NCBI GenBank assembly: GCA_018302225.1
Contig: JAGVZY010000007.1
Location: 13,700-77,699, forward strand
DNA from: Candidatus Woesearchaeota archaeon
Lineage (GTDB): Archaea; Nanobdellota; Nanobdellia; SCGC-AAA011-G17; JAGVZY01
DNA: 64,000 nucleotides
Reading direction: 5' to 3'
The first letter of the stretch is position 1, and each line of letters begins with the position of its first letter. A program made the position numbers and the translations under genes. The notes below the pieces were generated by a model that was given only the letters and a program-made list of their open reading frames with translations, had not been told where the DNA came from and did not search any database. Of the stretch, positions 4,094 through 64,000 are shown one piece after another.

Positions 4094-5878
4094 TTATAAA
4101 TTTGCATGAGTTCTAAGAACTATACGTGGTTCTAATATAAAATTTTTTGATAAATTGTCAATTCTATCACCTTTATCAGAATTTAAAAGAGGTGAATGAA
4201 ATAAGTGAGCTATTAAAGGGGTCTTCCCATCAAACCCTACAACTAAAACCACGTGAGTGAAATCTTGTCCTGCCTTTTGTGCAAGAGGTAAATACTTGCT
4301 CATCCTGTATCTTACTCCAATAATATCTCCTTTCTTAAGAAGAGAATAATCTAAATCACCAGTACCTTTCCAAATTACTTTACCCCCTTTAGCTAAAATA
4401 TTTGCAGGCATATGCCAAGCATTACCATAAACCCCATTTTTTTGTGCTGAACTAGAACCATACATTTTTTCATAAGCCATTTTTACATAACCAGCACATA
4501 CCACTTCAGAAGATTTAAAATCCATATAAGATATATCTCCTGTATCTTTGTTAATAATTATTTTAGATGCTAAATCTGGATTTGACTTCAAACTTTCAAC
4601 AGAAGCAGTATCTTCCTTAAGCAAATAACCATAAGTAGAATAACCTTTTTGAGCAAATCCCGCACCAGCAAAAACAGAGGTAACTAATACTGCTGTAGCC
4701 ACAGCTTTCTTAAATCTACTACTAAACATACCAATTCTTTTAACATCTTGATGAAGTTGCTTTTCCTCAATCTTTAATTCTTTAATCTCTTTCTTTTCTA
4801 CTTTCTCAACTTTTAATTCAAATTCTTTTTCAAAACTTCTAATTAATAATTCTAATTCTTTTTTATATTCATCAAATTCTTCAATTCGTTTAGATGCTTG
4901 CTGAACTTTAATTTTATTTTTTTCATTTTCTTTAATCCTTTCCTGTTCAACAATAAATTGTTTATAAAAATCTTTTAATTCTTGTTTAATCATTTCTAAT
5001 TCTCTATACTTATCTTTCTGCATTACTGCTGATTCTATAATCATATGATTTGCTATATCTACCCTACTAATACAAACCTGTATAAGTTCCTTAAACTGAG
5101 TCTCAAAATAAGAAAGTCCTCTTATAACCTCAAAAGCAACATTTTGATCTATCTTTTTATTATCTTTTAAAGAAATAAATCTCTTTTCTAATTGTTGGAT
5201 TTGTGAAATTATCCACTGAACTTTTCCATTTATTTGTTGTTTAGACTTAGCTCTATTCTTTAAATGAGTAACTAAAGCATAATCAGTTTCTAAATTAGGG
5301 TTAATTTTATCAAATTCTAATCCTATACTTTTAAAATATTTAAAATCATTTTCTATAAACTGAATTGTTCTTCCAATTAGAGATTCATATTCTTTTTCTA
5401 TTCCTAATAAAATCATTTGAATTTTTCCAGCAGTAGTTTTATCTAATTGAATTCCTTTCATAACTACTTTTAACCTATTAATAAACTCCTCAAAAATAGT
5501 TAAAGGTTGTCTAATATCATACATTAATTCTAAATCTTCATCTTCAATTAATTTTTTAAGAGAATTTATTATTTTTACAATATCATAAATTTGTTTTCTT
5601 AATTGCTTTTCATAGCTTCTTATGTCTTTAACAGAAGTTCTTTCTATACTTTTCATTGTGTTAAAATCTAATTCATTAACTCTTTCTAATGCTTTTTGTA
5701 AGCTTATAATTTCATTCCGATTCTTAATTCTTGATTGCTTGACTTTTTGATAGTCATATTCAAATCCACCTATTAAATTAGAAATCCGCTGATCTGTATT
5801 AGTAATTGTTTTTGGATTTAAAATTTGATCAGCTAATATAGTATTACTTAACTTTAACTTTAAACCAAATAAGTCCAT
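4094..5878 (-). CDS. membrane-anchored protein: about 380 aa cytoplasmic coiled coil, one TM helix, C-terminal papain-fold (NlpC/P60/CHAP-like) putative peptidase/amidase domain
   Basis: Long K/E-rich heptad-like N-terminal part and TM segment AVATAVLVTSVFAGAGFA. C-terminal region has Cys (EVVCAGYV) ... GDIIGV ... His (THVVLVVGF) in the spacing of NlpC/P60-type Cys-His hydrolases. Confidence 0.45.
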   Translation of the reverse strand: MDLFGLKLKLSNTILADQILNPKTITNTDQRISNLIGGFEYDYQKVKQSRIKNRNEIISLQKALERVNELDFNTMKSIERTSVKDIRSYEKQLRKQIYDIVKIINSLKKLIEDEDLELMYDIRQPLTIFEEFINRLKVVMKGIQLDKTTAGKIQMILLGIEKEYESLIGRTIQFIENDFKYFKSIGLEFDKINPNLETDYALVTHLKNRAKSKQQINGKVQWIISQIQQLEKRFISLKDNKKIDQNVAFEVIRGLSYFETQFKELIQVCISRVDIANHMIIESAVMQKDKYRELEMIKQELKDFYKQFIVEQERIKENEKNKIKVQQASKRIEEFDEYKKELELLIRSFEKEFELKVEKVEKKEIKELKIEEKQLHQDVKRIGMFSSRFKKAVATAVLVTSVFAGAGFAQKGYSTYGYLLKEDTASVESLKSNPDLASKIIINKDTGDISYMDFKSSEVVCAGYVKMAYEKMYGSSSAQKNGVYGNAWHMPANILAKGGKVIWKGTGDLDYSLLKKGDIIGVRYRMSKYLPLAQKAGQDFTHVVLVVGFDGKTPLIAHLFHSPLLNSDKGDRIDNLSKNFILEPRIVLRTHANL

Positions 5879-5913
5879 AAAATTAAGAACATTTAAGGAA
5901 TATATAAACTTTT

Positions 5914-6222
5914 TTAATCAATTAATTCAATTTCAATATTAACTTCTTCAGGAATAGGAACCCTCATTACTAATCTTAATGCTCTTTCATCAGCAGCTAA
6001 ATCGATTAATCTTTTATGAATTCTCATTTCAAAATTATCCCAAGAAGCAGTTCCCTTACCACAAGGAGACTTTCTAGTTGTTAATTTAAGCTTTTTAGTT
6101 GGTAATGTAATTGGTCCAGAAATATCTACTCCAGTCTTACTGGCTACATCCTTTATTGATTCACAGATTTGATTTAGCTTATCAATATCTGCACTTGCTA
6201 AGTTAATTCGTGCTTTTGGCAT
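5914..6222 (-). CDS. rps10: 30S ribosomal protein uS10
   Basis: Strong match to the archaeal S10 consensus (SGPITLPTKKLKLTTRKSP.G.G...WDNFEMRIHKRLIDL). Confidence 0.9.
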   Translation of the reverse strand: MPKARINLASADIDKLNQICESIKDVASKTGVDISGPITLPTKKLKLTTRKSPCGKGTASWDNFEMRIHKRLIDLAADERALRLVMRVPIPEEVNIEIELID

Positions 6223-6247
6223 AGTCTCTTTGATTAAACACTTATAT

Positions 6248-6673
6248 TTAAATTTTATCTTCAGAAGGGTTTTTAAATGTTTCTAAATGTTCAAATAGAC
6301 TTTCTAAAGAATTTCCTAAATTTCGATTACCTCCATAAATAGACTTTATAGTCTTTATGGGGTCTAAATTCTCTCCTGAATTATCAACTTTTTCAAGCTT
6401 TAAATTATAAAAAAAGCCAAAAACTCCATCTCTTAAACTTCTCTGATTAAACATAGCACTAATACTTTTTGGAAACCTTAAAACTAATCTAGTTAATCCC
6501 TCATCTTTTAGTTCAAAACCATCCATTACATAAATATTGCCTCCAGCAAAATTTCCACCAAAAATCTTTAAAGAATAAATTGAACCTTTTTTTAAAGAAT
6601 ACATTTTCTTAATAGATTTTTTAAATTTATAATCATTAGGTTCATACTCCAGAATTAAAATATAATTAATCAT
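6248..6673 (-). CDS. hypothetical protein inserted between tuf and rps10
   Basis: 141-aa ORF with normal codon usage, tightly packed between conserved neighbours; no motif recognised. Confidence 0.35.
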   Translation of the reverse strand: MINYILILEYEPNDYKFKKSIKKMYSLKKGSIYSLKIFGGNFAGGNIYVMDGFELKDEGLTRLVLRFPKSISAMFNQRSLRDGVFGFFYNLKLEKVDNSGENLDPIKTIKSIYGGNRNLGNSLESLFEHLETFKNPSEDKI

Positions 6674-6696
6674 AAAAAAGAAAAATTGAGAAGGTT

Positions 6697-7980
6697 TTAA
6701 GCCTTCTTTACATAATCAATACACATACCAGCCGCTACTGTTGAACCAGCATCTCTAATAGCAAATGAACTCATATGAGGTATATCTGATTTCTTTTCAA
6801 TTACTATTGGCCTTGTTGGAACAATTCTTACAATTGCGGCATCTCCATTTTTAAGCATGTCTGGACTTTTCTGTAAAACTTGTCCTGTTGCAGGATCTAA
6901 TTTACTTACTAATTCCTCAAATCTACACGCTACTTGTGCTGTATGTATATGGAATACAGGTGTATAACCTACAGTCAACACAGTTGGGTGATTCAATACT
7001 ATTATCTGTGCAGTGAATTCTTGAACAACAGTTGGAGGTGAATCTACTCTACCTAATACATCTCCTCTTGCAATATCTTTCTTTGCAATACCTCTGACAT
7101 TAAATCCAATATTGTCACCCGGTTCTGCAACTTGAATTTGCTCGTGATGCATTTCAATAGTTTTAACTTCTCCAGTTACACCCTTACCATCTTTTCCAGG
7201 TAAAATTATAACTTTGTCTCCAAGTTTTAATTGTCCAGTTTCAACTCTACCAACAGGAACAACACCAATACCAGTAATGTTATAAACATCTTGTATTGGA
7301 AGTCTTAATGGTAAGTTTGTTAATTTTTCTGGTTCTTTGAATGTATCTAATTGTTCAAAGATTGTTGGACCAGTATACCAAGACATATTAGTTGATTTCT
7401 TGAAAACATTATCTCCAAGCTGTGCACTTGTTGGAATAAAATTAACATTTGCTGGATTGTAACCAACAGTTTTCAATAATTTTGTTACTTCTTCTTTAAC
7501 AGCATTAAACTTTGCTTGATCGTACTTTACAGTATCCATCTTATTAACAGCAATAGCTAATTGTTTTACACCTAAAGTTTTACACAAGAATAAGTGTTCT
7601 TTAGTTTGAGCCATAATACCTTCACTTGCAGCCACAACTAAAACTGCAGCATCAGCTTGTGAAGCACCAGTAATCATATTTTTTATGAAATCTTTATGCC
7701 CTGGAGCATCTATGATACTTAACTCATATTTAGGAGTCATAAGTTTTTTATAAGAAAGATCTATTGTAACTCCTCTTGCTCTTTCTTCTTTAAGATTATC
7801 CATAACAAATGCAAACTCAAACCCTGCTTTACCTACTTCTTGAGCTTTTTCTTTTAATTTTCTCATTGTTTGCTCATCAATTATACCTGAATCGTAGAAC
7901 AATCTACCTACAGTTGTACTTTTACCGTGGTCTACATGACCTACAAATACTACATTTAAATGTGGTTTTTCTTTTGCCAT
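6697..7980 (-). CDS. tuf: translation elongation factor aEF-1 alpha
   Basis: [10 protein letters not shown]-loop, NKMD, SA motifs and full-length EF-1A/Tu architecture. Confidence 0.95.
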
Positions 7981-8040
7981 ATTAAAATATCCTCCTATTT
8001 AAGTATGAACAGATATTGGAATAAAAGCGCCTTTTATAAA

Positions 8041-14286: not shown

Positions 14287-14358
14287 GGCGGTGATAGTTC
14301 ATTGGTAGAATGCGGGCCTGTGGAGCCTGGGAGCCGAGTTCGATTCTCGGTCACCGCC
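14287..14358 (+). tRNA. tRNA-His (anticodon GTG) with genomically encoded G-1 pairing C73 (8-bp acceptor stem)
   Basis: Manual fold: G-1 + GCGGTGA/TCACCGC acceptor, U8A9, D stem GTTC/GAAT, anticodon stem CGGGC/GCCTG with loop CTGTGGA, T arm CCGAG-TTCGATT-CTCGG, discriminator C. No encoded CCA. Confidence 0.8.
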
Positions 14359-14366
14359 CTAAAAAT

Positions 14367-15608
14367 ATGATACAAAAACAAAAAGGAACAAGAGATTTTT
14401 ATCCAGAAGAAAAACGTACTCAAAACTATATTTTTGAAATCTGGAAATCAGTTGCAGAATCTTTCGGTTATGAAGAAATAAATGGTCCAACAATGGAGCC
14501 AATAGATTTGTACAAAAAATCCGGTTCTGAAATTCCTGAACAAATTTATACTTTAAAAGATAAATCAGATAATGAATTTGCTCTACGTCCAGAATTAACT
14601 CCAACTATAGCAAGAATGATTTCTCAAAAACAAGGAATTAAAAGACCCATAAAATGGTATGCAATTCCAGATTGTTACAGATACGAAGCACCTCAATCAG
14701 GAAGATTAAGACAATTTGCACAATTTAATTTAGATTTACTTGGAACAGAAACTACAACTTCTGATGCAGAAGTCATCACCGTTTTAGTTGAACTACTAAA
14801 AGCATTTGGATTTACAAAAAATGATGTGTTTGTAAGAATTTCAAATAGAAAGGTCATAGAATCATTCTTAGATTATCTAACAATTTCAAACAAAAAAGAA
14901 ATTGCAAAACTAATTGATAAATACGATAAATTATCTCCAGAAGGATTTCAAGAATCTCTTACAGAATTAATTGGATCTAAAAAAGCACAAGAAATAAGTT
15001 CATTCTTAAAAATAAGAAATATTTCAGATATTAAATTTGATTTTGATGAAAAAGGAAAACAAGGATTAAAGGAATTAAACGAACTATTTACAAAATTAAA
15101 AGCATTCGGAGTTTTAGAATATTGTAGACTTGATTTAAGTATTATGCGTGGATTTGATTATTACACAGGAACAATCTTTGAAGCTTATGATACTAATAAA
15201 AAATTCAGAGCCTTAGCAGGTGGTGGAAGATATGATAATTTAGTTGATTTCTTAGGCGGAGAACCCTGTCCAGGAATAGGATTTGGTATGGGTGATGTTA
15301 TCTTGGAACTATTATTACAATCTAAAAATAAACTTCCACAGTTAAAAAAAGAAATAAAATATTACATTGCGCCTGTTAATGATTTTGTGCTCAATACAGC
15401 AATAGAAATTGCTCAAAAACTAAGAAAATATAACAATGTTGAGCTCGAAGTTACTTCAAGAAAACTTTCTAAACAATTTGAATATGCTTCTGAAATAGGT
15501 GCAGAAAAGATAGTTATTGTTGGTGAAAAAGACTTAGAAAACAAACAAGTAACAATTAGAGATTTAGAAAATGGTAAAGAAGAAAAAGTAAATATAAAAA
15601 ATTTGTGA
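14367..15608 (+). CDS. hisS: histidyl-tRNA synthetase
   Basis: GTRDFYPEE motif, class II motifs 2 and 3 (FRALAGGGRYD), C-terminal anticodon-binding domain. Start moved to ATG 14367 because the ORF-track start at 14310 overlaps the tRNA. Confidence 0.9.
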   Translation: MIQKQKGTRDFYPEEKRTQNYIFEIWKSVAESFGYEEINGPTMEPIDLYKKSGSEIPEQIYTLKDKSDNEFALRPELTPTIARMISQKQGIKRPIKWYAIPDCYRYEAPQSGRLRQFAQFNLDLLGTETTTSDAEVITVLVELLKAFGFTKNDVFVRISNRKVIESFLDYLTISNKKEIAKLIDKYDKLSPEGFQESLTELIGSKKAQEISSFLKIRNISDIKFDFDEKGKQGLKELNELFTKLKAFGVLEYCRLDLSIMRGFDYYTGTIFEAYDTNKKFRALAGGGRYDNLVDFLGGEPCPGIGFGMGDVILELLLQSKNKLPQLKKEIKYYIAPVNDFVLNTAIEIAQKLRKYNNVELEVTSRKLSKQFEYASEIGAEKIVIVGEKDLENKQVTIRDLENGKEEKVNIKNL

Positions 15609-27710: not shown

Positions 27711-27842
27711 CCCATCCTAGCTCAATGGTAGAGCACTCGGCTGTAGCTTTAGAGCGCAGGCAAAGTTAATGTCCAAAAGACTAACAATGAAGACCTGACA
27801 GCCGATACCGAGTGGTTCCTGGTTCGAGTCCGGGGGATGGGA
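27711..27842 (+). tRNA. tRNA-Tyr (anticodon GTA) with 60-nt intron (27747-27806) at the canonical 37/38 position; C1:G72 base pair
   Basis: Manual fold: acceptor CCCATCC/GGATGGG, D arm GCTC-AATGGTA-GAGC, anticodon stem CTCGG/CCGAG interrupted by 60 nt after CTGTAG, T arm CCTGG-TTCGAGT-CCGGG, discriminator A. Confidence 0.75.
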
Positions 27843-31779: not shown

Positions 31780-32502
31780 ATGAAAAGATTATTTTTTGTT
31801 TTGATTTTGGGGGCATTAATTTTAGTAACAGGTTGTACGGAAAAAAATCCGATTTCATCTACACCCGCAGTAAATACACAACCCCTATTGCCTTATGAAG
31901 AAGGCTCTGACACGTGGATAATTCATATTTATAAGTATCAAATGGGCTTTAAAATGGTGGCCGGCTATACTTTTACTTCGCCCCTTACACAAGTTGATAT
32001 GGGCGAAAAGATTTATATCAGCCAGCCCTATTTTGAAGCTTCTGAAACAGTCTCTGTAAAAGTTACATTGACTAACTGTATGAACATTTCTAACACGGGA
32101 ATAATCTCACTTATCGTTGGAGGGTGTAACGAAGAAGTTCCTTTCATTCTCAGACCTATTTCTTATGAAAATGAATTCTCTTTTGAATTACCTGCAGATA
32201 AAATTGGGATAGGAAAACACTCCTTCAGTTTTTCAATTTTAGAAAATCCTAACTGGCAAGCAGATGCTTTCACTGGAAGAGTAAGCATAGGAAAAAAATA
32301 TTCTATTACTGATGGAAGTGTCATCTCGTTTCAAGAAAAAAAACTAACAATAAAAGAAATTTTAGAAACTGGGGAGATTATCATTTCTTATCTAAATGAA
32401 GAAAAGGTTATTAATAAAGACTCAATCAAAGCAGTAAAAGATTTGATAATAAAAGTAGGGGCAGATTCTACCCTTGTAGTTTGGGAAAGTATTCTTCCCT
32501 AA
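31780..32502 (+). CDS. predicted secreted lipoprotein (lipobox LVTG|C)
   Basis: Signal peptide MKRLFFVLILGALILVTGC with a bacterial-type lipobox; GC-richer than the flanks. Confidence 0.5.
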   Translation: MKRLFFVLILGALILVTGCTEKNPISSTPAVNTQPLLPYEEGSDTWIIHIYKYQMGFKMVAGYTFTSPLTQVDMGEKIYISQPYFEASETVSVKVTLTNCMNISNTGIISLIVGGCNEEVPFILRPISYENEFSFELPADKIGIGKHSFSFSILENPNWQADAFTGRVSIGKKYSITDGSVISFQEKKLTIKEILETGEIIISYLNEEKVINKDSIKAVKDLIIKVGADSTLVVWESILP

Positions 32503-32631: not shown

Positions 32632-33348
32632 ATGAAAAAGATACTTTTTGTTTTATCAATTTTTGTTTTACTCTTTGCGGTTCAGAACGCAGAAGCAGAA
32701 AATCTCCTTCAAAAGATAACAGAAAAGATGATGAATCTCTATTCTGCAGAAACAGACGTTTACATTAAAAATCGCTTAATCGAAGAGGTTTGTAGCATTC
32801 AACAAAAAGAAATAGATTGGGAGTTATTCAATAAAGCTGCTGAATTCTTTACTGATTATAAGTCTGCCTATCCGTTTGGTACAATTCCTATACATACCTG
32901 GGAAATATGCAGATTTATGAATAAAAGTGAACAATTAGCACTTATTGCTAATTTTGAGTCATTTGTTCTCTTTCGTATAAACGCGGCCTTACCTAAAGAG
33001 GTTTTATTCAGAGAAGAAAATAGATTAGATACTTCTCCCCTCTTTATTGACATATTTATTGATACATTATATGAATTTGATATTGTATTAATCAATAATA
33101 TTTCTTTATCTGATAGCTGGATTGAATGGACCGATGATAGTAGCACGGAAATTATCAACAGAGACGATTTGCGAGAAGTCGCAAACGTAGCGAGTAATAA
33201 ACTAATTGCTTATGAGCCTAAGTATTCCGATTGGATTCTTCGAGATAAAGAAAATTTTCCTCGAGGGATTAGATGGCCTATGGAAAAAGAAAACTTACCT
33301 TATTTCTTCAGACAATATGAACGCATAAAGCAGTATGCAGGGAAATAA
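32632..33348 (+). CDS. secreted protein (cleavable signal peptide), unknown function
   Basis: MKKILFVLSIFVLLFAVQNAEA signal; 238 aa. Confidence 0.45.
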   Translation: MKKILFVLSIFVLLFAVQNAEAENLLQKITEKMMNLYSAETDVYIKNRLIEEVCSIQQKEIDWELFNKAAEFFTDYKSAYPFGTIPIHTWEICRFMNKSEQLALIANFESFVLFRINAALPKEVLFREENRLDTSPLFIDIFIDTLYEFDIVLINNISLSDSWIEWTDDSSTEIINRDDLREVANVASNKLIAYEPKYSDWILRDKENFPRGIRWPMEKENLPYFFRQYERIKQYAGK

Positions 33349-40461: not shown

Positions 40462-41584
40462 AATGGTAAACAAAATATTAACTGGTGCAGAAACCAGTGC
40501 AGAAGCAATGCGTCAAATAGCCCCAGATGTAGTTTCAGCCTATCCTATCACTCCTCAAACCCATATAATTGAAAAATTCTCAGAATTTATTGCAGATGGT
40601 TTAATAGACACAGAATTGATTAGAGTAGAATCAGAACATAGTGCCCTAAGTGCTTGTGTTGGTGCTTCAGCAACAGGTGCAAGAACAATGACTGCAAGCT
40701 CATCAGCAGGCTTAGCCTTAATGTTTGAAATATTAGGAGTTACCTCGGGATTAAGACTTCCAGTAATTATGAACATTACAAATAGAGCATTATCTTCACC
40801 AATAAATATTCATTGTGATCATTCAGATTCTATGAATTGCAGAGATTCTGGTTGGATTCAAATATATTCTGAAAACTGTCAAGAAGTTTATGATTTCAAT
40901 TTAATAGCAGTAAAACTTGCAGAGTCGATAAATCTTCCAGTAATGATCATGCAAGATGGTTTTATTGTTTCTCATGGTGTGGAAAATTTATGCATTCTAG
41001 AAGACAAAAAAGCAAAATTATTTATAGGAAATTATAAACCAAAGTTTTCTTTACTTGAATTTAAAAAACCGAAAACCTTTGGTGCCTTACAACTAACAGA
41101 CTATAATTTTGAAACAAAAATTCAAATTTCGCAAGCAATGGAAAAAGCAAAACAAAAATATTTAGAAATTTCAAAAGCATATTCAAAAATCTCAGGAAGA
41201 AATTATAATTTCTTTGAATATTATGGAAATAAAAATACAAAAGATGTAATTGTGGCTTTATCTTCAACAGCAGGAACAATAAAAAGTATGATTGATGAAG
41301 GTTTAAATCTTGCCCTATTAAAAATTAACTTATTTAGACCATTCCCCCATGAAGAAATAAAAAATATTCTAAAAGATAAAAAAAGAATTATAATCTTAGA
41401 TCGTTCAGAAAGCTATGGTTCTTATCCACCCCTATATTCAGAAATCAAATCTGCACTTTATGATCTAAAAGAAAAACCTGAATTAATAAGTCATGTATTT
41501 GGAATTGGTGGAAGAGAAATTTACAAACAAGATATAAAAAATATTTTAAATAATTCAAAAAAATATATAGGTGTAAGAGAATGA
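40454..41584 (+). CDS. porA: POR alpha subunit
   Basis: Full-length match to POR alpha pattern; overlapping starts/stops with neighbours. Confidence 0.85.
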   Translation: MNKMVNKILTGAETSAEAMRQIAPDVVSAYPITPQTHIIEKFSEFIADGLIDTELIRVESEHSALSACVGASATGARTMTASSSAGLALMFEILGVTSGLRLPVIMNITNRALSSPINIHCDHSDSMNCRDSGWIQIYSENCQEVYDFNLIAVKLAESINLPVMIMQDGFIVSHGVENLCILEDKKAKLFIGNYKPKFSLLEFKKPKTFGALQLTDYNFETKIQISQAMEKAKQKYLEISKAYSKISGRNYNFFEYYGNKNTKDVIVALSSTAGTIKSMIDEGLNLALLKINLFRPFPHEEIKNILKDKKRIIILDRSESYGSYPPLYSEIKSALYDLKEKPELISHVFGIGGREIYKQDIKNILNNSKKYIGVRE

Positions 41585-43623
41585 AAGATTTAACAATAAA
41601 AGAACTGGCTCAAAAGGATACTCAGTTTATATCAGGGCATAGAGCTTGTGCGGGGTGTGCATTCCCAATTATCGTGAAAACTATTCTCGCATCAACAGAT
41701 AAAAAAGTAGTTGTCTGTGCTGCAACAGGTTGTTTAGAAGTTGTCTCAACAATTTACCCTTATTCTTCATGGAAAGTTCCATTTATTCACAGTGCATTTG
41801 AAAATGCAGGTGCAACAATTTCAGGTGTAGAAACTGCATTTAAAGCATTAAAGAAAAAGGATCCAAAATTAAAAAAAGAAGACGTTAAATTCATTGCCTT
41901 TGCTGGAGACGGTGGATCTTACGACATTGGACTTCAGTCTTTATCAGGAACATTAGAACGTGGGCATGATATAGTATTTGTAGTTTATGACAATGAAGCT
42001 TATATGAATTGTCTAAGCTTAGATAGCCTAATTATGACTAAAGAAGGGTTAAAAAAAGTAATGGATGTTAAAGTTGGAGAATTGATCTATGCTTTTGATG
42101 AAAATGCTCATAAACTGATTACTAAAAAATGTATAGGTAAATTTAATAATGGTATTAAAAAAGTGTATGAACTTAACACATTTCATCATTCAATAAAAAC
42201 AACAGATAATCACCCTTTTCTAATATTAAAACGAAATGGGCGAGGTAAAAAAGCTCAATTTATTTGGAAGAAATTAAAAGATTTAAAAGTAGGCAATGAA
42301 ATTATAACTTTAAAGAAAATAAATAATGAAAAAAGTTTCAGTTTTGATAAAATAAAAATATCTAAAAAAGGAGATTACAAAGTAAATAAAATAAATGAGA
42401 TAAATTTACCAAAAATAAGTTCTACAAATTTAATGGAATTTTTAGGATTATATATGGGCGATGGATGGATAAGAGAATCTAAGGCAGAAGTAGGTTTTGC
42501 ACTACCCCGCAATAAAAAAGGGCGCGAGAGGTTAATAACTCTCTATAAAAAAATATTTAATATATCGCTTAAACCAAAAGATAAAAACTATGTTTATATT
42601 TATTCTTTAAATTTAGTAAGATTTATAGAATCTTTAAAATTTAATAAAGGTGCAAAAAATAAAATAGTGCCTGCTTGGATATTCACTCTGCCACTTAAAG
42701 AAAAAGAAGCTTTTATACAAGGATTAATGCTTTCAGATGGATATCAAATAAAAAATAGTAAAAGATATATATCTGCGAGCATCGATCTTTTAAAAACCTT
42801 AAGATTACTTCTGCAAACCTGCAATTATAGAGTAGGAAAAATACATTTACAAAAAAAATTAAAAGGAACGCATGTAGTTTATAGAAAATTGTTAAAAGAT
42901 TCTACTTATGGTTATATCTGTTTTAGTAAAAAAAAGAGGTTATTAATTGATAAATATATCTCTCAAACAAAACAAAAAGACTTTTTTGCAGGAAATAAAA
43001 ATTTTGGAACTGAAAAAATAATTTCTATTAAATTTATAAAAGAAGAATCAACAATTGATTTAAGTGTTGAAGGAGCACATAATTTTATAGCCGACGGAAT
43101 TGTAGTCCACAATACAGGGGTTCAAGGATCAAGTTCAACTCCTTTCGGTGCTACAACTACAACAACACCAGATGGAAAAATTCATCATGGTAAAGAACAA
43201 ATCAAAAAGAATTTAATGGAAATTGTAATCGCACATAAAATACCTTATGCTGCACAAGCAAGTGTCTTTGATTTGGAAGATCTTTCAAGAAAAGCAAAAA
43301 AAGCATTTGAAACAAAAGGCCCTAGTTTCTTAAATGTTTTATCACCCTGTAATTTAGGTTGGAAACATCCACCAAACATAACAATTACAATTGCAAAACT
43401 AGCAACAGAAACAAATTTCTGGCCATTATATGAATATGAAAATGGAAATTATATCTTAAATTATAAACCACAAATTCAAAAGAGTGTAAATTCTTATTTA
43501 AGACTTCAAGGTAGATTTAAGCACCTTTTTAAACCAGAAAATAACTTACTTCTTGAAAAACTGCAAAAATCAACTGATGAACAGTGGGAAAAACTGTTAA
43601 AAGTCTCTAAAAACCTTAAATAA
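41581..43623 (+). CDS. porB: POR beta subunit (TPP-binding) interrupted by a 368-aa intein
   Basis: CAGCAFP cluster-ligand motif, GDG-x25-N TPP motif; exteins sum to about 312 aa, typical PorB size. Confidence 0.85.
   Translation: MKDLTIKELAQKDTQFISGHRACAGCAFPIIVKTILASTDKKVVVCAATGCLEVVSTIYPYSSWKVPFIHSAFENAGATISGVETAFKALKKKDPKLKKEDVKFIAFAGDGGSYDIGLQSLSGTLERGHDIVFVVYDNEAYMNCLSLDSLIMTKEGLKKVMDVKVGELIYAFDENAHKLITKKCIGKFNNGIKKVYELNTFHHSIKTTDNHPFLILKRNGRGKKAQFIWKKLKDLKVGNEIITLKKINNEKSFSFDKIKISKKGDYKVNKINEINLPKISSTNLMEFLGLYMGDGWIRESKAEVGFALPRNKKGRERLITLYKKIFNISLKPKDKNYVYIYSLNLVRFIESLKFNKGAKNKIVPAWIFTLPLKEKEAFIQGLMLSDGYQIKNSKRYISASIDLLKTLRLLLQTCNYRVGKIHLQKKLKGTHVVYRKLLKDSTYGYICFSKKKRLLIDKYISQTKQKDFFAGNKNFGTEKIISIKFIKEESTIDLSVEGAHNFIADGIVVHNTGVQGSSSTPFGATTTTTPDGKIHHGKEQIKKNLMEIVIAHKIPYAAQASVFDLEDLSRKAKKAFETKGPSFLNVLSPCNLGWKHPPNITITIAKLATETNFWPLYEYENGNYILNYKPQIQKSVNSYLRLQGRFKHLFKPENNLLLEKLQKSTDEQWEKLLKVSKNLK
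42010..43113 (+). mobile_element. intein with LAGLIDADG homing endonuclease, inserted right after the conserved Asn of the PorB TPP motif (...YDNEAYMN|C...VVHN|TG...)
   Basis: N-terminal Cys, C-terminal His-Asn followed by Thr. Two LAGLIDADG motifs: LGLYMGDGWI and IQGLMLSDGYQI. Confidence 0.8.
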
Positions 43624-49123: not shown

Positions 49124-49495
49124 AAGTAGGCAAGACATCCAACTGACGGTTTGTCCGCAAGGATTTAAGCTGAGGAAAGTCCGCCCACCACAGGAAATCA
49201 AATGATTGTTACCAATTACTTGAAACTGAAGCAATACCACTCTAGTTTACTAGAGATCCTGAAAAGGATGGCAACAGCTCAGAAAAGACACGGCCTATTA
49301 GTTTGTGATGATGTTTGCGAATGGCTTAGTAATAAGCTCAGAGCTAACCAACTGAATTTGCTAATAGGATGCGATGAAACTGCTAGTCCCGGAATGGTGC
49401 AAGTCTTGTATTAGACGCTTAGTTAAATGTTGGAAAAGTTTGGCTTTAAGTTAAACTTACAGAAGGCGGCTTATCTCTTGCCTACAATTTTTTCT
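49124..49495 (+). ncRNA. rnpB: RNase P RNA (archaeal type A-like)
   Basis: CR-I GAGGAAAGTCCGCCC near the 5' end and CR-V ACAGAAGGCGGCTTA near the 3' end, with compensatory CCGC/GCGG covariation in P4. 5' AGGCAAGA pairs with 3' TCTTGCCT (P1); T-rich tail after 49495. Ends approximate (plus or minus 10 nt). Confidence 0.7.
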
Positions 49496-56619: not shown

Positions 56620-58092
56620 TTAAGTATTATATTTTTTTCTTGCAAATCTTCTCTTACTTGAAAATCTATTACCTTCAGATCTATTTTCAGATCTACCTTC
56701 AGAACTTCTTTCATTAGAAGAATGATTACCAAATCTTCTTGGCCCATCAAACCTTCTTGGTCTATTATCTCTGCCTTCAATCTCTTCAGGTTTTCTTTGA
56801 CCAAAGCCATATCCAACAGATTGATTACCTCTAGGTTCTTCTCTTCTATTATCTCTTCTTGAATCACTTCCAAATCTTCTTCCACTATATGAATGTCCGC
56901 CAGATCTTGATCCACCAAATCTTGAACCTCTAAAATTTGATCTTCCACGACTATCTCCACCTCTTGAATGTGCTTGGAAAGCGATTCTTTCAAAATTCTC
57001 TTTAGGTAGCTTTTCAATTTTAACTCTGAACCTATCTAAAATTTGTGCAAATATATCATATTCATTAGGTTCTAAAAGTGTAATTGCTTTTCCTGTTTCT
57101 CCTGCTCTTGCAGTTCTTCCCACTCTATGTATATATTCTTGTGGATCTTTTGATAATCCATAATTAAATATGTGTGTAATTCCTTTAATATCTAATCCAC
57201 GAGCAGCAACTGCTGAAGCAATTAAAATATTACAATCCCCACCATTAAATTCCCTTATAATTCTCAGACGAGTACTTTGTGTTAATCTTCCATGAATTTT
57301 TTCTACTTTAATTCCTTGTCTACTAAGATTTCTTTCAAGTGCATCTACACCATGTCTTGTTGGACAAAATACAATTGCTCTTTTCATATCTTCTTTCTTC
57401 AACAAATGAACTAACAAAGAAAACTTTTCATGTGGTTGAACTTCTATATAATATTGTTCTAATAAATCTTCTTGAACTTGTAATTCTGTTTTTGCAACTA
57501 AAGGTGATTTCATATGTTTATGTTTAATATGATTTATCTCATCTGAAATTGTTGCTCCAAATAATATAACTTGTCTTGTCTTTGGAATTTTTGAAAGCAT
57601 ATATTCTATATCTTCTATAAATCCCATCTCAATCATTTTATCGGCTTCATCTAAAACTAAACATATTAATTTTGATAAGTTTAGATTTCCTCTATTCAAA
57701 TGATCCACTAATCTTCCTGTAGTTCCAACCACAATCTCTGCGTCTCTAAGTTCTTTTGTTTGTGGAAGTAAAGAAACACCACCATACACAGTTGCTAATT
57801 TACAATGCAAATATTTTGCATATTTCTTCATTTCTGTAGTAATCTGTACTGCTAATTCTCTAGTAGGTGTTAAAATTAGAATTTGTAAACCTCTTCCTGG
57901 AACTGCTTTTTCTAACATAGGAATTCCGAAAGCAATTGTCTTTCCTGATCCTGTGTTGGACATACCAATTACATCTTGTCCTGTTTTTATCATAGGTATG
58001 GCTAGTTTCTGAATCTTAGTAGGACTAACTATACCATGCTCTTTCAAAGCCTTAATTATCTCTGGCTTTATATTTAATAACTCAAATGTCAT
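56620..58092 (-). CDS. DEAD-box ATP-dependent RNA helicase with RGG/RG-rich C-terminal tail
   Basis: Q motif, GSGKT, DEAD (VLDEADKM), SAT, HRVGRTAR. Last about 110 aa is a low-complexity G/R/S/F tail. Confidence 0.9.
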   Translation of the reverse strand: MTFELLNIKPEIIKALKEHGIVSPTKIQKLAIPMIKTGQDVIGMSNTGSGKTIAFGIPMLEKAVPGRGLQILILTPTRELAVQITTEMKKYAKYLHCKLATVYGGVSLLPQTKELRDAEIVVGTTGRLVDHLNRGNLNLSKLICLVLDEADKMIEMGFIEDIEYMLSKIPKTRQVILFGATISDEINHIKHKHMKSPLVAKTELQVQEDLLEQYYIEVQPHEKFSLLVHLLKKEDMKRAIVFCPTRHGVDALERNLSRQGIKVEKIHGRLTQSTRLRIIREFNGGDCNILIASAVAARGLDIKGITHIFNYGLSKDPQEYIHRVGRTARAGETGKAITLLEPNEYDIFAQILDRFRVKIEKLPKENFERIAFQAHSRGGDSRGRSNFRGSRFGGSRSGGHSYSGRRFGSDSRRDNRREEPRGNQSVGYGFGQRKPEEIEGRDNRPRRFDGPRRFGNHSSNERSSEGRSENRSEGNRFSSKRRFARKKYNT

Positions 58093-59040: not shown

Positions 59041-59619
59041 ATGATAATTGGATTAACAGGAACTATCGGCTCTGGAAAAGGAGATTTAGCAAGATACTTA
59101 GAAAATAAAGGTTTTCAAAGAATAGTTTTCTCAGATATTTTAAAAGATGAATTAATTAAAAGAGGAATAGAAATAACTAGAGAAAATTTGCAATTGATGG
59201 GAGATGAATTTAGAAAACAAGGAGATTTAAATGTACTTGCAAGAAAACTTTTAGAAAAAATAACCAGAGAAAATGTGGTCTTAGATGGAATAAGAAATCC
59301 TGGTGAAGTTGATTATCTTAAAAAAAATTCACGATTTGTTTTAATAGGCATAGATGCAGATGAACACACAAGGTTTGAAAGAACAATTTCAAGAGGAGAT
59401 GCTAGAGATCCTAAAACTTATAGAGAATTTAGAGAACGTGACGAAAAAGACAGACGTAGTATTAATCCAGAAGGCCAACAAGTCGATTTATGTTTACAAC
59501 AAGCAGATTATAAAATCTTTAATAACACAACAATAGAAGAGTTTCACGCTCAAATAGAAAGCGTTCTAATCCAAATTAAAAATAAGAAATATCAGCATAC
59601 AGGCGCCGATGAATATTGA
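59041..59619 (+). CDS. P-loop nucleotide kinase, dephospho-CoA kinase (CoaE)-like
   Basis: IGLTGTIGSGKG Walker A at the N-terminus in CoaE-like context. Confidence 0.4.
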   Translation: MIIGLTGTIGSGKGDLARYLENKGFQRIVFSDILKDELIKRGIEITRENLQLMGDEFRKQGDLNVLARKLLEKITRENVVLDGIRNPGEVDYLKKNSRFVLIGIDADEHTRFERTISRGDARDPKTYREFRERDEKDRRSINPEGQQVDLCLQQADYKIFNNTTIEEFHAQIESVLIQIKNKKYQHTGADEY

Positions 59620-60042
59620 AGCATCTGCCAAATTAAATACAGGAAACATCCAAATACTGATATAATCTCTTACATAGCCATAAACAACCCTATCGACCAG
59701 ATTAGCTATTGTTCCAGCAAACAATAAAATCAAAGATAAATTAAATAATTTTTTGTGTTTACTGCTTACTATTTTCTTAACAAATTTATATTTTAATATT
59801 TCATTTAGATAAATATAACATAACAATAAGATTATTGCAAATATAATAGAACAAATAATAATTCCAACTAAATGCCCTTCAAACAATCCAAATAAAGCCC
59901 CCCCATTTTTTAAATAAGTAAATAATAGCAAATCTTTATTATAAAAAAGATTTTTAAAAATAAAATCAAAAATAAAAACAAAAAAAGTAATTAAAATTAG
60001 AATAGGAAATTTATATAATTTAGTTCTGAAATTATTTACCAT
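59566..60042 (-). CDS. lspA: lipoprotein signal peptidase (signal peptidase II)
   Basis: NGGALFG and NLVDRVVYGYVRDYISIW..FPVFNLADASIFIGA match the LspA catalytic-Asp motifs; four TM helices. Confidence 0.8.
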   Translation of the reverse strand: MVNNFRTKLYKFPILILITFFVFIFDFIFKNLFYNKDLLLFTYLKNGGALFGLFEGHLVGIIICSIIFAIILLLCYIYLNEILKYKFVKKIVSSKHKKLFNLSLILLFAGTIANLVDRVVYGYVRDYISIWMFPVFNLADASIFIGACMLIFLIFNLD

Positions 60043-60392
60043 CTTGTAGATTTTTGTTTTGTTTCTAAAGCATTAATTCTATTAATTAAATTATCTAATT
60101 TTGCACTTATAACATCAAGCTTTGCATTAACTAATTCTAGCTCTTGCCCACGCATAGATTCTTGTCTTGGATTTGGAACTTCAAAACGGGGTCTAGAAAA
60201 TTCCATTTCATTTCTTTCATTACCAAATCTTTTATCTAAATATCCTTTATCTAACGGATTATTTTGATTTAATCCTAAATTGTTATTCATTCCAAACGAA
60301 TCAGTTTTATTCTGAGAAGGCATAGAAAAATCATCATCTAACTTAAGATTTTCCAAAGGATCCTTTTTTTTAAATAATCCGAAAATACTCAT
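60036..60392 (-). CDS. hypothetical protein with C-terminal coiled coil
   Basis: 118-aa ORF. Confidence 0.3.
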   Translation of the reverse strand: MSIFGLFKKKDPLENLKLDDDFSMPSQNKTDSFGMNNNLGLNQNNPLDKGYLDKRFGNERNEMEFSRPRFEVPNPRQESMRGQELELVNAKLDVISAKLDNLINRINALETKQKSTRW

Positions 60393-60485
60393 TTTTTTAC
60401 CTCTTTTTTCTTATATTGGGCTTTTAACCCACCGAAACCTTTAAAAGTAGTCTTAATTTATATAAATTACGGAAAGAGGTGCTGC

Positions 60486-62021
60486 ATGGGTTCTGTTATA
60501 GAAAAAGCAATAAAATATAACGCCAAAACAATCGCAAAAAGAAAAGGTGCTTCAGACAAAGAAGCAGATGATATAGCAAAAAAAGCAGTTTCTTCTTGCC
60601 TGGGAATAAATGAAAATTACCCTGAAAAAGGTTTTCTTTTAATTTATGATTCTTATATGGAAGGTTTAGAACCAATTTACTTCCAAATATTAGATATGAT
60701 GAGAGACAAGTATTGGGGTTTAGGATTGGATGTAAGCAAAACTCTAGACGAATTCGAAGCTTCAGTAGGTGGAGGATTTTACGGAGATCTAGGCTCCAAA
60801 GCAGGAATCATTCAAGATAGAGCAATGAAACACATTGCAACTATTAACACAATAATAAAAAGTGTTCTTAATTTAATTTATAGTTTAAAGGAATTTGATA
60901 ATCGTCTTTTAATGTATGATAGACTAAAATCAACAAATAAAAGTGATAAAGAAGCAGGACTCCTCGCGCTAAAATCCTTATGGATGGATAAAGTTGACAT
61001 GCAAAAAGGTAATGGAAGTATAAACATGCTCACCCAAAAATTGGGATTTGTTACACTTAGAGATGCTTTCATGAAAATAAAAGATGTAAATGAAGCTAAA
61101 AAAGCAGATTTAAATGAAAGAGTTCAAAGAATCTTAATGCAAAGAATTGCAGAATTTAATGACTGGTTAACATTAAGTGATAATGAATTAAGAAGAAGAT
61201 ATAGAATAGAAAGATTATACCTGAAAAGCCAAATTGAAAGTTTAAAATTATATTCTCAATGGGCCAAACCCTATTTAATCGCAGCACAAAAACTTCAAAT
61301 GGTTAGTTTTAATTCTCCAGATTTAGTAAATTTATTTGATAATCTTAGAATGGAAGTAAATCTTTTTGGGAAAAAAGTAACTGATTCGCCTATTGAAAAT
61401 ACTGCTTCTTCAAAAAAATATTATTCTTGCCTCGAAGTTATATTTTCATTCAGAAGTATACCCCACATTACAAGAAGCCAACAAGGAGGTTCACACTATT
61501 CACAAGGAGGACGTATAGAACTTAGATTTATGGGATTTGGATTAGATGAAGACCAAGTAAATGCAGTTGAAGAAGTTCAATTAAAAGATAGTCTTTCTAT
61601 GATAGCTGGAGTTACAGATGAAACAATTAATGAAATAATTGCTGCCGCAGAAACTTACACAAAAGATAAAGAAGAAACATTTGATTTTAATGAAAGATTA
61701 ACATTCTTAGAAGATTTAGAAAAAACTTCTAAAGATCCAGAAGTAAGAAAAAGAATAAAAGAACATATTTCACAAATGAAAAAGTCTCCACAAAAAAAGA
61801 TAGAATATTCAAATCCTTTTTCAGGTGTATTTGTAGGATTTTCAGAATTATTCAAACCGGTTAAAGGTTTTATGACTTCATTTTCAAAAAAAAGTAAATT
61901 GCAGACACAACAAACTTATATTGATTCAGAAACAAAAAAAGCTGCAAGAACAGCTGCAGGAAAAATGGCTTTCATTGCATATGATGTCTTCAAAAAAACA
62001 AGGAGGATGCTTGCCTGGTAA
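60486..62021 (+). CDS. large hypothetical protein (511 aa), first gene of a two-gene unit
   Basis: Long ORF with normal composition; no motif recognised. Confidence 0.4.
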   Translation: MGSVIEKAIKYNAKTIAKRKGASDKEADDIAKKAVSSCLGINENYPEKGFLLIYDSYMEGLEPIYFQILDMMRDKYWGLGLDVSKTLDEFEASVGGGFYGDLGSKAGIIQDRAMKHIATINTIIKSVLNLIYSLKEFDNRLLMYDRLKSTNKSDKEAGLLALKSLWMDKVDMQKGNGSINMLTQKLGFVTLRDAFMKIKDVNEAKKADLNERVQRILMQRIAEFNDWLTLSDNELRRRYRIERLYLKSQIESLKLYSQWAKPYLIAAQKLQMVSFNSPDLVNLFDNLRMEVNLFGKKVTDSPIENTASSKKYYSCLEVIFSFRSIPHITRSQQGGSHYSQGGRIELRFMGFGLDEDQVNAVEEVQLKDSLSMIAGVTDETINEIIAAAETYTKDKEETFDFNERLTFLEDLEKTSKDPEVRKRIKEHISQMKKSPQKKIEYSNPFSGVFVGFSELFKPVKGFMTSFSKKSKLQTQQTYIDSETKKAARTAAGKMAFIAYDVFKKTRRMLAW

Positions 62022-62040
62022 TTAAGCAAGTTTAATATAA

Positions 62041-64000
62041 ATGGCATTTACTATGAATGATTATTATTCTTCCATTGATTTCAAAAGAGATAATCCAGTT
62101 AAAGATATTACTATAAAAGAATTTGGAAGTGCAATTGTAACTGATTTTACAGGTTCCAATGTTGCTGCTTCTATGAGTCAAAGTGCAAGCACAGGTCAAG
62201 GTGCATTTGAACTTGGAAGTCTACAAAGACAAAAATTTGAAGAAATCCCACAACAACAATGGGATGAAGTAAGAAGACTAGGAAAGTTAACAGGTGTTAA
62301 ACCTTCATTACATGCACCTATGGTGGATGTCTTAGGAAAAACAGTTTCAGGAGAATTCTCAGAGAAAAAAAGAAAAGAAGTTGTTAATGAAATGATGGAA
62401 TATCTTAAAACTGGAAACACTATAGATCCAGACAACAATACTCCTGTAAACTTTCACTCCAGTGTTGGAGTTGGTGGAGAAAACAGTTTCTCGGGTGTTT
62501 ATTATCAAAAAGGATTATACAAAGGTCCAAAAGACGAAGATATAGAACTTGCAAAAATAAGAGCTGAAAAAATGGGTTTACCAGATTGGAGAGTTCTTGT
62601 TCCAGAAGCAACTGAAAAATTAGCTGCAGCCGCAGTTGATGTTAACACTGGAAGAATTGAACCTTTAATTTACAAAGAAGTTAAACAACTTCCTAGAACT
62701 TTTGAAGAAGAAAAAAGAGGATACCATCTTGAAGTTTATACTCCTGAATCAAGGATAACAAGTTTAAATAAAAATGCTTGGGATCAAGAAATGGAAAAAA
62801 TTCTTGGAAGTGAACACCAGATTTTCAAAATCAAAAGAAATTTTGAGGGTATAAATAGAGATATAGAAGAGGCAGGAGAAACTTTTGTAAAAATAAACCA
62901 AGATTTAAAAGAAAAAAAGATTGAAGAAAGCTACGCTAAATATGAAAAACTAAAATTAATACAAACAATTGAACAAAAAAAGCGTGAAATGTCATTAATG
63001 TCTGCCAACATACAACAAATAGACGAAGCAATGGATTCACAAGTTAATTCTATATATGATAATCTAAATAAAAGTTGTGAAAATGCCTCAGAAGAACTAA
63101 AAGAAGTATATCAAGATAAAATAAAGAGTCTCTCAAACATTTCTGCAAAATATAGCGAAGACAAAATGGCTATAAGAAAAATTATGAATGAAATCAGAGG
63201 AGAATTAAATAAACGGTATGGGGAAAAAGTTTCACGTGATAAACTGGATCAACTTGCGAAACAAGGAGATCAAACAGCAATAGCCTATTTAGAAGCAAAT
63301 AATAGATTAATAAACATTGACGCTGACAAAATAAAAGAAGTAGCAGATTCTATGCAAAATCTTCCAGACGAACTTCAATATGCTTCAAATGGAAAAATTA
63401 CTTATCCAGAAAGATTTAGATTATTCGAAGACTTTGCAATAGAAAAAGGCTCAGAAACTTTTTCAGATCTAGCAGAAAGAGCTTACGAAGAGTGGACTTC
63501 TAAAGGAAAAAACGCACCCTTAATTACAATTGAAAACCCACCAGTCGGACAATTTGCAATTTCACGTGCAGATGAATTAAAAAAACTAATTGAAGACTCT
63601 AGAAGTAAGTTTGCAGAAAAATTAATTAAAAATAAACATCTTGATGAAAAAAAAGCAAAAAAACTTGCTGAAGAAATGATTTCTGCTACTTGGGATGTTG
63701 GACATATTAATTTCTTAAAGAGTATGGGTTATGATGATAAAGATATTATTAAAGAAACAGAAAAAATTGCAAAATATGTTAAACATCTTCATATTACAGA
63801 TAATTTTGGAACAAGCGATTCACACCTTGCTCCAGGTATGGGCAATGTTCCAATAGAAGAGATAATGAAAAGTTTAGATAAAGCCGGTTTTGAAGGAAGA
63901 AAAATTATAGAAGCAGGAAAATTTATATCTGATTTTAAAGAAAGCGATATTCCTTATGCAATGGATTATTTTAAATCACCATTATATTCAGGAGAAATGG
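62041..64000 (+). CDS. large protein, partial (runs off window): unknown about 520-aa N-terminal region fused to a xylose-isomerase-like TIM-barrel (sugar-phosphate isomerase/epimerase, AP endonuclease 2 family) domain
   Basis: Open frame from ATG 62041 to the window end, missing from the ORF track because no stop. C-terminal TWDVGHINFL ... KHLHITDNFGTSDSHLAPGMGNVPIEEIMKSLDKAGFEG matches the metal-binding pattern of the xylose isomerase-like fold. Confidence 0.45.
   Translation, partial: MAFTMNDYYSSIDFKRDNPVKDITIKEFGSAIVTDFTGSNVAASMSQSASTGQGAFELGSLQRQKFEEIPQQQWDEVRRLGKLTGVKPSLHAPMVDVLGKTVSGEFSEKKRKEVVNEMMEYLKTGNTIDPDNNTPVNFHSSVGVGGENSFSGVYYQKGLYKGPKDEDIELAKIRAEKMGLPDWRVLVPEATEKLAAAAVDVNTGRIEPLIYKEVKQLPRTFEEEKRGYHLEVYTPESRITSLNKNAWDQEMEKILGSEHQIFKIKRNFEGINRDIEEAGETFVKINQDLKEKKIEESYAKYEKLKLIQTIEQKKREMSLMSANIQQIDEAMDSQVNSIYDNLNKSCENASEELKEVYQDKIKSLSNISAKYSEDKMAIRKIMNEIRGELNKRYGEKVSRDKLDQLAKQGDQTAIAYLEANNRLINIDADKIKEVADSMQNLPDELQYASNGKITYPERFRLFEDFAIEKGSETFSDLAERAYEEWTSKGKNAPLITIENPPVGQFAISRADELKKLIEDSRSKFAEKLIKNKHLDEKKAKKLAEEMISATWDVGHINFLKSMGYDDKDIIKETEKIAKYVKHLHITDNFGTSDSHLAPGMGNVPIEEIMKSLDKAGFEGRKIIEAGKFISDFKESDIPYAMDYFKSPLYSGEM

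Follow-up and report, generated by a model that had tools for sequence, protein, structure and literature searches.

A signal peptidase II (LspA) homologue with conserved partner genes in Woesearchaeota and related DPANN archaea

The window, by which we mean the whole 64-kb stretch of DNA analysed here, encodes a homologue of the lipoprotein signal peptidase LspA in the genome of a DPANN archaeon. The protein belongs to peptidase family A8 and has an intact active site and the LspA fold; its host is archaeal, its spread extends over the whole lineage, and its gene neighbourhood is conserved. From sequence comparison and modelling, it is probably a functional lipoprotein signal peptidase that has long been resident in Nanoarchaeota-type DPANN archaea and acts there on lipobox proteins.

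A review published in 2022 states that archaea have no known Lsp homologue (PMC7613921), and a paper from 2025 agrees, leaving the lipoprotein signal peptidase of archaea yet to be found (PMC12462473); the preliminary description of this DNA, which took archaea to be without Lgt and Lsp, is thus in keeping with the current literature (PMC7613921; PMC12462473). The literature accessible to our search yielded no report of LspA in Woesearchaeota, Pacearchaeota, Nanoarchaeota or DPANN archaea. What is already known is the enzyme family A8 and the automatic NCBI label of the protein as signal peptidase II. What is new is the recognition that an entire archaeal lineage has LspA, together with the streamlined architecture of the enzyme and its invariant partner genes.

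Results and Discussion

Family membership, active site and fold

The gene under study is the following.

59566..60042, minus strand: lspA homologue, ATG start, 158 aa, a four-TM intramembrane aspartyl protease of family A8

The translation of this ORF contains the motifs LKNGGALFGLFEG and ANLVDRVVYGYVRDYISIWMFPVFNLADASIFIGAC, and it matches the Pfam model Peptidase_A8 (PF01252) over profile positions 2-141 of 142 with 80.5 bits (E 1.8e-22), the gathering cut-off being 25 bits. Its matches in NCBIfam are lipoprotein signal peptidase models only, all of them at sub-equivalog level: the lspA equivalog TIGR00077 gave 45.7 bits, under its cut-off of 73.95, and scores against the PRK147xx equivalogs were likewise far under their cut-offs. 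Membership of A8 accordingly holds at the family level and not at the equivalog level. A sequence search of the PDB returned LspA entries only (9emz, 5dir/6fms, 6ryo/6ryp). In the alignment with LspA of P. aeruginosa (9emz/5dir), residues D126 (in YVRDYI) and D140 (in FNLADAS) fall on the catalytic residues D124 and D143, and their equivalents are invariant across all archaeal and bacterial sequences compared. The family-invariant positions, as defined by comparing 78 bacterial LspAs with the archaeal homologues, are kept in the window protein at D26, K30, N46, G48, G110, N114, D117, R118, V124, D126, F136, N137, A139 and D140. Both checks on family assignment named in the preliminary description, a search with PF01252 and the presence of the conserved Asp pair, therefore came out in favour of LspA.

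Hydropathy analysis indicates four membrane segments. An AlphaFold2 model based on an alignment of 38 homologues (pLDDT 87.2, pTM 0.81) has four long helices, at residues 12-32, 58-84, 94-121 and 138-156. The Asp dyad D126/D140 sits in the membrane, as in bacterial LspA. When this model was compared with the PDB using Foldseek, LspA structures only were retrieved (E 1.7e-7 to 2.8e-6, TM 0.57-0.72), the next match having an E value above 1. The ORF had been described from its letters as a 158-aa protein with LspA motifs and four TM helices, and motifs, hydropathy and model bear this out, far above what chance would give. It encodes a genuine LspA-family protease that is apparently catalytically competent.

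The β-cradle of bacterial LspA is extracellular and helps, along with a periplasmic helix, to clamp the substrate or globomycin, and in solved LspA enzymes most of it is made up by the stretch from D...K of TM1 to the N-x-G motif. The spacing between these two landmarks is 15 residues in the window LspA, and the clade median is 9-15 (9 being the median of the unlabelled archaeal-clade sequences) as against 26 in bacteria (55 LspAs, IQR 26-26.5). In the AlphaFold2 model, the cradle region keeps only the short strands 41-46 and 124-128. The loop between the first catalytic Asp and F-N-x-A-D is also shorter, with 10 residues compared to 12 in bacterial enzymes, and a Lys-rich insertion is found in the cytoplasmic TM2-TM3 loop of the window LspA. 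Many members of the archaeal clade are 115-127 aa in length. The active site of archaeal LspA is intact, and its substrate-clamping periphery appears from these comparisons to be cut down.

Archaeal host and distribution

The host is a DPANN archaeon of the Woesearchaeota (Nanoarchaeota in GTDB terms), and the archaeal nature of the window is beyond doubt. The window contains an archaeal RNase P RNA (118 bits), an intron-containing tRNA, and genes for the archaeal r-proteins L24e, S28e, L7Ae, S24e and S27e as well as for RtcB with Archease, aEF1A and aEF2, and Rpb7, Spt4, a thermosome subunit, a proteasome subunit, aCPSF, NAC and Sec61beta are further archaeal markers of the window or contig. 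A YkuD L,D-transpeptidase domain is also encoded in the window. With the flanks of the 64-kb window included, archaeal markers lie on both sides of lspA. NCBI entry MBS3166867.1, named “signal peptidase II [Candidatus Woesearchaeota archaeon]”, is the exact LspA protein of the window. At least 24 contigs carry this protein, the longest measuring 135 kb; they come from several independent samples, and the gene order is constant throughout. The GC content of lspA is 22.6%, compared to 29.0% for the whole window.

A profile built from five archaeal LspAs retrieves thousands of A8 proteins, and among the best 120 of these thousands of matches every protein named by NCBI is archaeal, the sources being Woesearchaeota, Pacearchaeota, Nanoarchaeota or plain “archaeon”. 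One homologue (P0032) is located on a Pacearchaeota contig of 710,724 bp (CP061211.1), a scan of GTDB adds a Woesearchaeota MAG and a Nanoarchaeota single-cell genome with an LspA homologue, and some of the archaeal homologues adjoin archaeal r-protein and RNA-polymerase genes. The window protein belongs to a clade of more than 100 LspA homologues from Woesearchaeota, Pacearchaeota and Nanoarchaeota. Its nearest non-archaeal relatives show 30-45% identity, and the nearest matches among GTDB representatives are mostly bacterial; the best bacterial relative, from a group of 132-aa proteins of spore-forming Firmicutes, is 42% identical over 73% of the length. Mean LspA identity is 44% within archaea versus 36% between archaea and bacteria.

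A phylogeny of LspA had been proposed in the preliminary description as a check. In the point estimate of a neighbour-joining tree computed from 118 core columns, 9 archaeal-labelled and 103 unlabelled sequences fall into one clade with 0 of 78 bacterial sequences inside; the direction and source of any transfer are not settled by it, with bootstrap values of 10/200 for the separating split and 0/200 for monophyly in a tree of labelled sequences only. Such support is negligible, and no claim of a single origin or of a donor is therefore drawn from the tree; the argument is carried by synteny. Any transfer from bacteria would have been ancient, because the gene neighbourhood is shared across Woesearchaeota, Pacearchaeota and Nanoarchaeota (see below) and because the GC content of lspA is below the window mean. 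Archaeal lspA is widespread in this DPANN lineage and, from its distribution, old and vertically maintained. Of the acquired bacterial-style maturation step suggested in the preliminary description, the LspA-family protease and a lipobox protein remain, and the notion of an isolated acquisition does not, given this shared neighbourhood.

Two other origins were considered for the gene. It is hardly credible that the region stems from a bacterial contaminant, a chimera or mis-binning, with lspA originating for example from a CPR or Firmicutes organism. LspA is otherwise a hallmark of bacteria, and the mostly bacterial GTDB-representative matches at 30-45% identity would fit such a source, but archaeal markers flank the gene on both sides, the same arrangement was recovered from several samples on contigs of up to 135 kb, homologues are present on the 710-kb Pacearchaeota contig CP061211.1 and in a single-cell genome, others adjoin archaeal r-protein and RNA-polymerase genes, and a GC content of 22.6% fits the host. 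To the extent that sequence data allow, contamination, a possibility raised in the preliminary description, and chimerism are ruled out by archaeal context and independent assemblies. A recent horizontal transfer from bacteria, confined to this genome or to a narrow group of strains, is very unlikely. DPANN genomes hold many bacterial-type genes, and the YkuD domain encoded in the window would be in line with such an event; however, the best bacterial relative is the Firmicutes protein with 42% identity over 73% of the length, homologues are spread over Woesearchaeota, Pacearchaeota and Nanoarchaeota with conserved synteny, the mean identity of 44% within archaea exceeds the 36% to bacteria, and lspA shows no compositional anomaly. 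A recently transferred island is accordingly rejected on this combination of no close bacterial relative, wide archaeal spread and unremarkable composition. Because the same context recurs in independent assemblies, lspA is neither contamination nor a recent island.

A conserved gene neighbourhood

The genes and the intergenic region next to lspA are as follows.

60036..60392, minus strand: small soluble protein of 118 aa directly upstream of lspA, its stop overlapping the lspA start (ATGGTAA)
60393..60485, no strand: divergent intergenic region of 93 bp between the small-protein/lspA unit and the 511-aa gene, read from the sequence
60486..62021, plus strand: soluble protein of 511 aa from a lineage-specific family, divergently adjacent to lspA
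62041..64000, plus strand: TIM-barrel protein, of which the N-terminal 653 of 715 aa are encoded before the gene leaves the window; full length in L001 at 5855-8002

Eleven archaeal loci were compared, i.e. the window with L001, and L063, L086, L087, L093, L094, L095, L096, L097, L098 and L099, with L096 and L097 having been reached via the partner protein and not via LspA. In all eleven, lspA lies close to a gene for a soluble protein of ~460-550 aa without Pfam domain. The two genes are directly adjacent, or parted only by the small upstream protein, in nine loci, and a DJ-1/PfpI gene lies between them in L098; in ten loci the pair is divergently oriented, while in L094 both genes point the same way. 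Genes for an AP_endonuc_2 protein (570-715 aa) and an NTP_transf_2 protein (~260-300 aa) are found within a few kb in 10/11 loci, L063 and L086 having been read only around lspA. In L094, lspA and the genes for the ~460-aa partner, the TIM-barrel protein and the nucleotidyltransferase are all co-directional. Orthologues of these partners share 26-70% (~500-aa protein), 25-46% (TIM-barrel protein) and 36-80% identity (nucleotidyltransferase), and the maintenance of gene order despite such deep divergence suggests functional linkage. None of the archaeal partner genes was found in the context of the bacterial nearest-relative locus (Firmicutes).

The 118-aa protein encoded directly upstream of lspA features an amphipathic N-terminus (MSIFGLFKKK), a low-complexity middle part and a C-terminal coiled coil ending in ..TRW, and had no match in Pfam, NCBIfam or PHROG. 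A small protein of 92-133 aa directly precedes lspA in six loci (window, L086, L087, L093, L097 and L099). The amphipathic N-terminus is evident in 6/6 of these proteins, and the low-complexity middle and coiled coil were read in five, the protein of L099 having been read at its N-terminus only. The ATGGTAA stop/start junction is common to three distant genomes (window, L086 and L097), which also have the same small-protein architecture, and this overlap of the small-protein stop with the lspA start suggests translational coupling. The 93-bp region upstream of this unit contains A/T-rich, TATA-like stretches and GAGGT-like predicted ribosome-binding sites that would face both ways.

The ~500-aa family comprises at least 602 clusters; those that bear a name are without exception hypothetical proteins of Nanoarchaeota, Woesearchaeota or an “archaeon”. 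The protein has no TM segment, and its AlphaFold2 model (pLDDT 76) displays long helical hairpins and a sheet of long strands. No fold relative was found in the viral library BFVD, and a family-profile search of PDB sequences gave no match. The adjacent 715-aa AP_endonuc_2 protein is a xylose-isomerase-like TIM barrel split into two halves that a long helical insertion separates, the C-terminal half resembling MJ1311 (E 6e-13) and the N-terminal half being weakly CbiR-like. The NTP_transf_2 protein is encoded next after this gene on the contig.

Candidate substrates and the lipidation step

Some archaeal proteins are lipid-modified at an N-terminal Cys, and Euryarchaeota and DPANN are predicted to have lipobox proteins in abundance. 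A survey with SignalP 6 predicts that lipoproteins are prevalent in DPANN (PMC12462473). The window encodes one candidate substrate.

31780..32502, plus strand: candidate substrate, an orphan protein of 240 aa with a Sec-type signal peptide and lipobox (MKRLFFVLILGALILVTG↓CTEK) at its N-terminus

Among the ORFs of the window, with all alternative starts considered, this protein alone passes the strict lipobox pattern; a textbook lipobox (LVTG↓C) had been pointed out in it. No orthologues of the lipobox protein were found, and the product of the neighbouring gene (32632-33348) has an ordinary SPase I-type signal peptide. The gene had also been assigned to a GC-richer island, a claim that we do not retain: GC content is 33.9% for the gene and 30.9% at 29-37 kb, compared to 29.0% for the whole window, differences too small to mean anything.

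Lipobox-like sequences are also apparent near lspA in related genomes. The DJ-1/PfpI gene directly upstream of lspA in L098 has a lipobox-like start (MRMAVLIATVSLLILILIVLNG↓C), a gene beside lspA in L095 encodes a twin-arginine signal ending in ...LLAALEG↓C, and a small protein encoded 1.7 kb downstream of lspA in L087 has a lipobox-like N-terminus. Over the archaeal loci, Cys at position +1 after lipobox-like signal peptides is 5.4-fold enriched over background (3/60, P ~0.02), as against 2.9-fold in bacterial control loci.

In the bacterial pathway Lgt acts before LspA, with Lnt as an optional last enzyme, and a bacterial-style maturation step would thus presuppose lipidation of the Lgt type. 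No match to lgt (PF01790) was detected among the genes of the window and of ten other archaeal loci, or in ~235 kb of related archaeal DNA, the coverage of the source genome being ~64-90 kb. In bacteria, lgt was found near lspA in only 1 of ~80 loci, and because the two genes are so rarely close together the ~235-kb archaeal sample is too small to exclude lgt. The Lgt signature motif was absent from 206 kb of archaeal DNA, in a search with a PROSITE-like pattern that is without power, since the same motif gave only one match in bacterial loci totalling 1.33 Mb. Among the proteins encoded in the 64-kb window, no polytopic membrane protein is left unassigned.

Proposed function and alternatives

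We propose that a lipobox protein would be exported and then lipid-modified at the thiol of Cys(+1), after which LspA would cut the signal peptide off just before the lipid-modified Cys. The product of 31780-32502, with its MKRLFFVLILGALILVTG↓C sequence, would be an example of such a substrate, and the lipidating enzyme could be a bacterial-type Lgt encoded elsewhere in the genome, the archaeal AliA, or another enzyme. For archaeal LspA, we infer both the class of substrate and the order of reactions. Several features were counted against the peptidase role, namely the lack of an lgt match in the DNA covered, the sub-equivalog TIGR00077 score, the shortened β-cradle and the orphan status of the candidate substrate. 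The invariably linked partners, soluble proteins for which no connection with lipoprotein maturation is known, were also counted against it, and they leave room for a different or additional role of LspA.

Such a role would be that of an LspA-derived protease recruited to a lineage-specific task, general lipoprotein signal-peptide cleavage being at most a part of its work. LspA and the ~500-aa, small coiled-coil, TIM-barrel and nucleotidyltransferase proteins would form a membrane-associated module that might, for instance, remodel the envelope or membrane or process non-lipoprotein membrane substrates. We regard this alternative, the main one, as unlikely, if worth keeping in mind. The pairing of lspA with the ~500-aa gene in 11/11 archaeal loci despite a partner identity of 25-45%, the co-directional arrangement of the four cluster genes in L094 and the ATGGTAA overlap kept in three distant genomes would all suit a dedicated module, as would the shortened β-cradle, the score under the equivalog cut-off and the lack of the partner genes in the nearest bacterial relatives. 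However, synteny is the one line of evidence for a module, and the enzyme retains every catalytic or substrate-site residue found to be invariant among bacterial LspAs. In addition, the partners carry neither a TM segment nor a signal peptide, which excludes them as substrates of a protease with its site turned towards the outer leaflet, and lipobox proteins are encoded in related genomes, some of them right beside lspA. A lipoprotein signal peptidase acting on lipobox proteins is hence the reading that we favour.

A further proposal brings these elements together, and we offer it as speculation that we ourselves hold to be doubtful. The LspA of Woesearchaeota, Pacearchaeota and Nanoarchaeota might represent the “missing” archaeal signal peptidase II in streamlined form, operating downstream of an AliA-like and not an Lgt-like transferase on lipoproteins anchored by non-bacterial lipids, either archaeol-type or scavenged from the host. 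Together with the coupled small amphipathic coiled-coil protein, the ~500-aa protein, the split TIM-barrel protein and the nucleotidyltransferase, it might then make up a lineage-wide module whose dedicated task would be to construct or remodel the surface of an episymbiotic cell.

Significance

The presence of an intact LspA homologue in a large archaeal lineage corrects the statement that archaea have no Lsp, and for the cleavage step in DPANN it provides a candidate that can be tested at once. Nature has here also set up an experiment on whether an LspA active site is able to handle substrates that reside in an archaeal membrane or in one made of scavenged lipids, and the linkage to uncharacterised lineage-specific genes points to undescribed envelope biology of DPANN archaea. 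These points are tempered by the facts that the enzyme family is well known, that the protein was already annotated automatically, and that bacterial-type genes are not unusual in DPANN.

Comparison with known systems

Compared to the bacterial enzymes of known structure (5DIR and 6FMS from P. aeruginosa, 6RYO and 6RYP from S. aureus), the window LspA belongs to the same Pfam family and has the same four-TM fold (TM ~0.7). The Asp dyad and the D, K, N-x-G, G, N-x-x-D-R, V-x-D and F-N-x-A-D elements are common to both, and candidate substrates with a lipobox are encoded as well. The window enzyme differs in its archaeal host, its shorter β-cradle, the shorter loop between Asp and FNxAD and the Lys-rich TM2-TM3 insertion. 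Moreover, archaeal lspA is tied to lineage-specific partner genes, which are absent from the one close-relative bacterial context that was read gene by gene.

The minimal 132-aa LspAs of Firmicutes (P0003-P0015; L089 and L090) are 41-42% identical over 73% of the query and have the same motifs, and they and the window LspA are both short forms. Their genomic context, in contrast, is bacterial (SpoIVA, YqfD, HU, RecO) and without the archaeal partner genes, and they fall outside the archaeal clade in the neighbour-joining point estimate.

The archaeal Ali pathway concerns the same process, the maturation of archaeal lipobox proteins. Its signal peptidase is still to be identified, no archaeal Lsp homologue being known (PMC12462473), and AliA (arCOG02177) has been reported across DPANN “with some gaps” (PMC12462473). 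AliA and AliB belong to the lipidation step and have no sequence relation to LspA; AliA could provide the lipidated substrate on which archaeal LspA would act.

A conserved gene cluster containing lspA

The lspA gene belongs to a gene cluster conserved in DPANN and present at every one of the 11 archaeal loci examined: that of the window, continued past the window end in locus L001, and loci L063, L086, L087 and L093-L099. In the window and L001 it spans the following positions:

window 59566-64000, extending past the window end; L001 4999-10477: conserved DPANN lspA cluster

The cluster comprises an NTP_transf_2 protein of approximately 270 aa, an AP_endonuc_2 protein of 570-715 aa whose split TIM barrel contains a helical insertion, frequently an acidic low-complexity protein of approximately 160-210 aa, and a family of approximately 460-550 aa for which no fold relative was recognisable; next come a small amphipathic coiled-coil protein and lspA. 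Just beyond it, past the window end, L001 2289-3107 and 3172-4970 encode a DDE transposase together with an ATPase of the AAA_3/AAA_5 type that adjoins a protein with a PycTM domain (Pycsar-type effector TM domain). This region may be a defence island.

Lipoprotein-like signals and a second envelope enzyme

In two other archaeal genomes, genes directly adjoining lspA carry lipoprotein-like signals:

L098 6345-6971, +: DJ-1/PfpI protein with N-terminus MRMAVLIATVSLLILILIVLNG|C
L095 10404-11090, -: protein with twin-arginine signal TRRNFLRASGATTLLAALEG|C

The second of these looks like a Tat lipoprotein. Elsewhere in the window lies a further bacterial-type cell-envelope enzyme of this archaeon, in which a YkuD catalytic domain is combined with a hydrophobic anchor at the N-terminus:

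window 3491-4093, +: YkuD L,D-transpeptidase domain protein, 200 aa (PF03734, 83.6 bits)

RNA genes and other protein genes of the window

window 14288-14359, +: tRNA-His(GTG)
window 14310-15608, +: histidyl-tRNA synthetase gene hisS, longest ORF
window 27711-27842, +: tRNA, 132-nt span (Rfam, 51.6 bits)
window 41581-43623, +: TPP-binding subunit of 2-oxoacid:ferredoxin oxidoreductase, 680 aa, with intein (PF14890 Intein_splicing, precomputed annotation of locus L091)
window 49129-49482, +: archaeal RNase P RNA, full length (RF00373, 118 bits)
window 56620-58092, -: DEAD-box helicase

The RNase P RNA served as domain marker. The tRNA at 27711-27842 was matched by Rfam with no ARAGORN call, a combination consistent with an intron-containing archaeal tRNA. 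Immediately 5' of hisS, tRNA-His(GTG) overlaps the start of the longest ORF, and the real hisS start probably lies farther downstream. The DEAD-box helicase has an eukaryote-like-looking C-terminal tail of approximately 130 aa with abundant RG/RGG/SR repeats.
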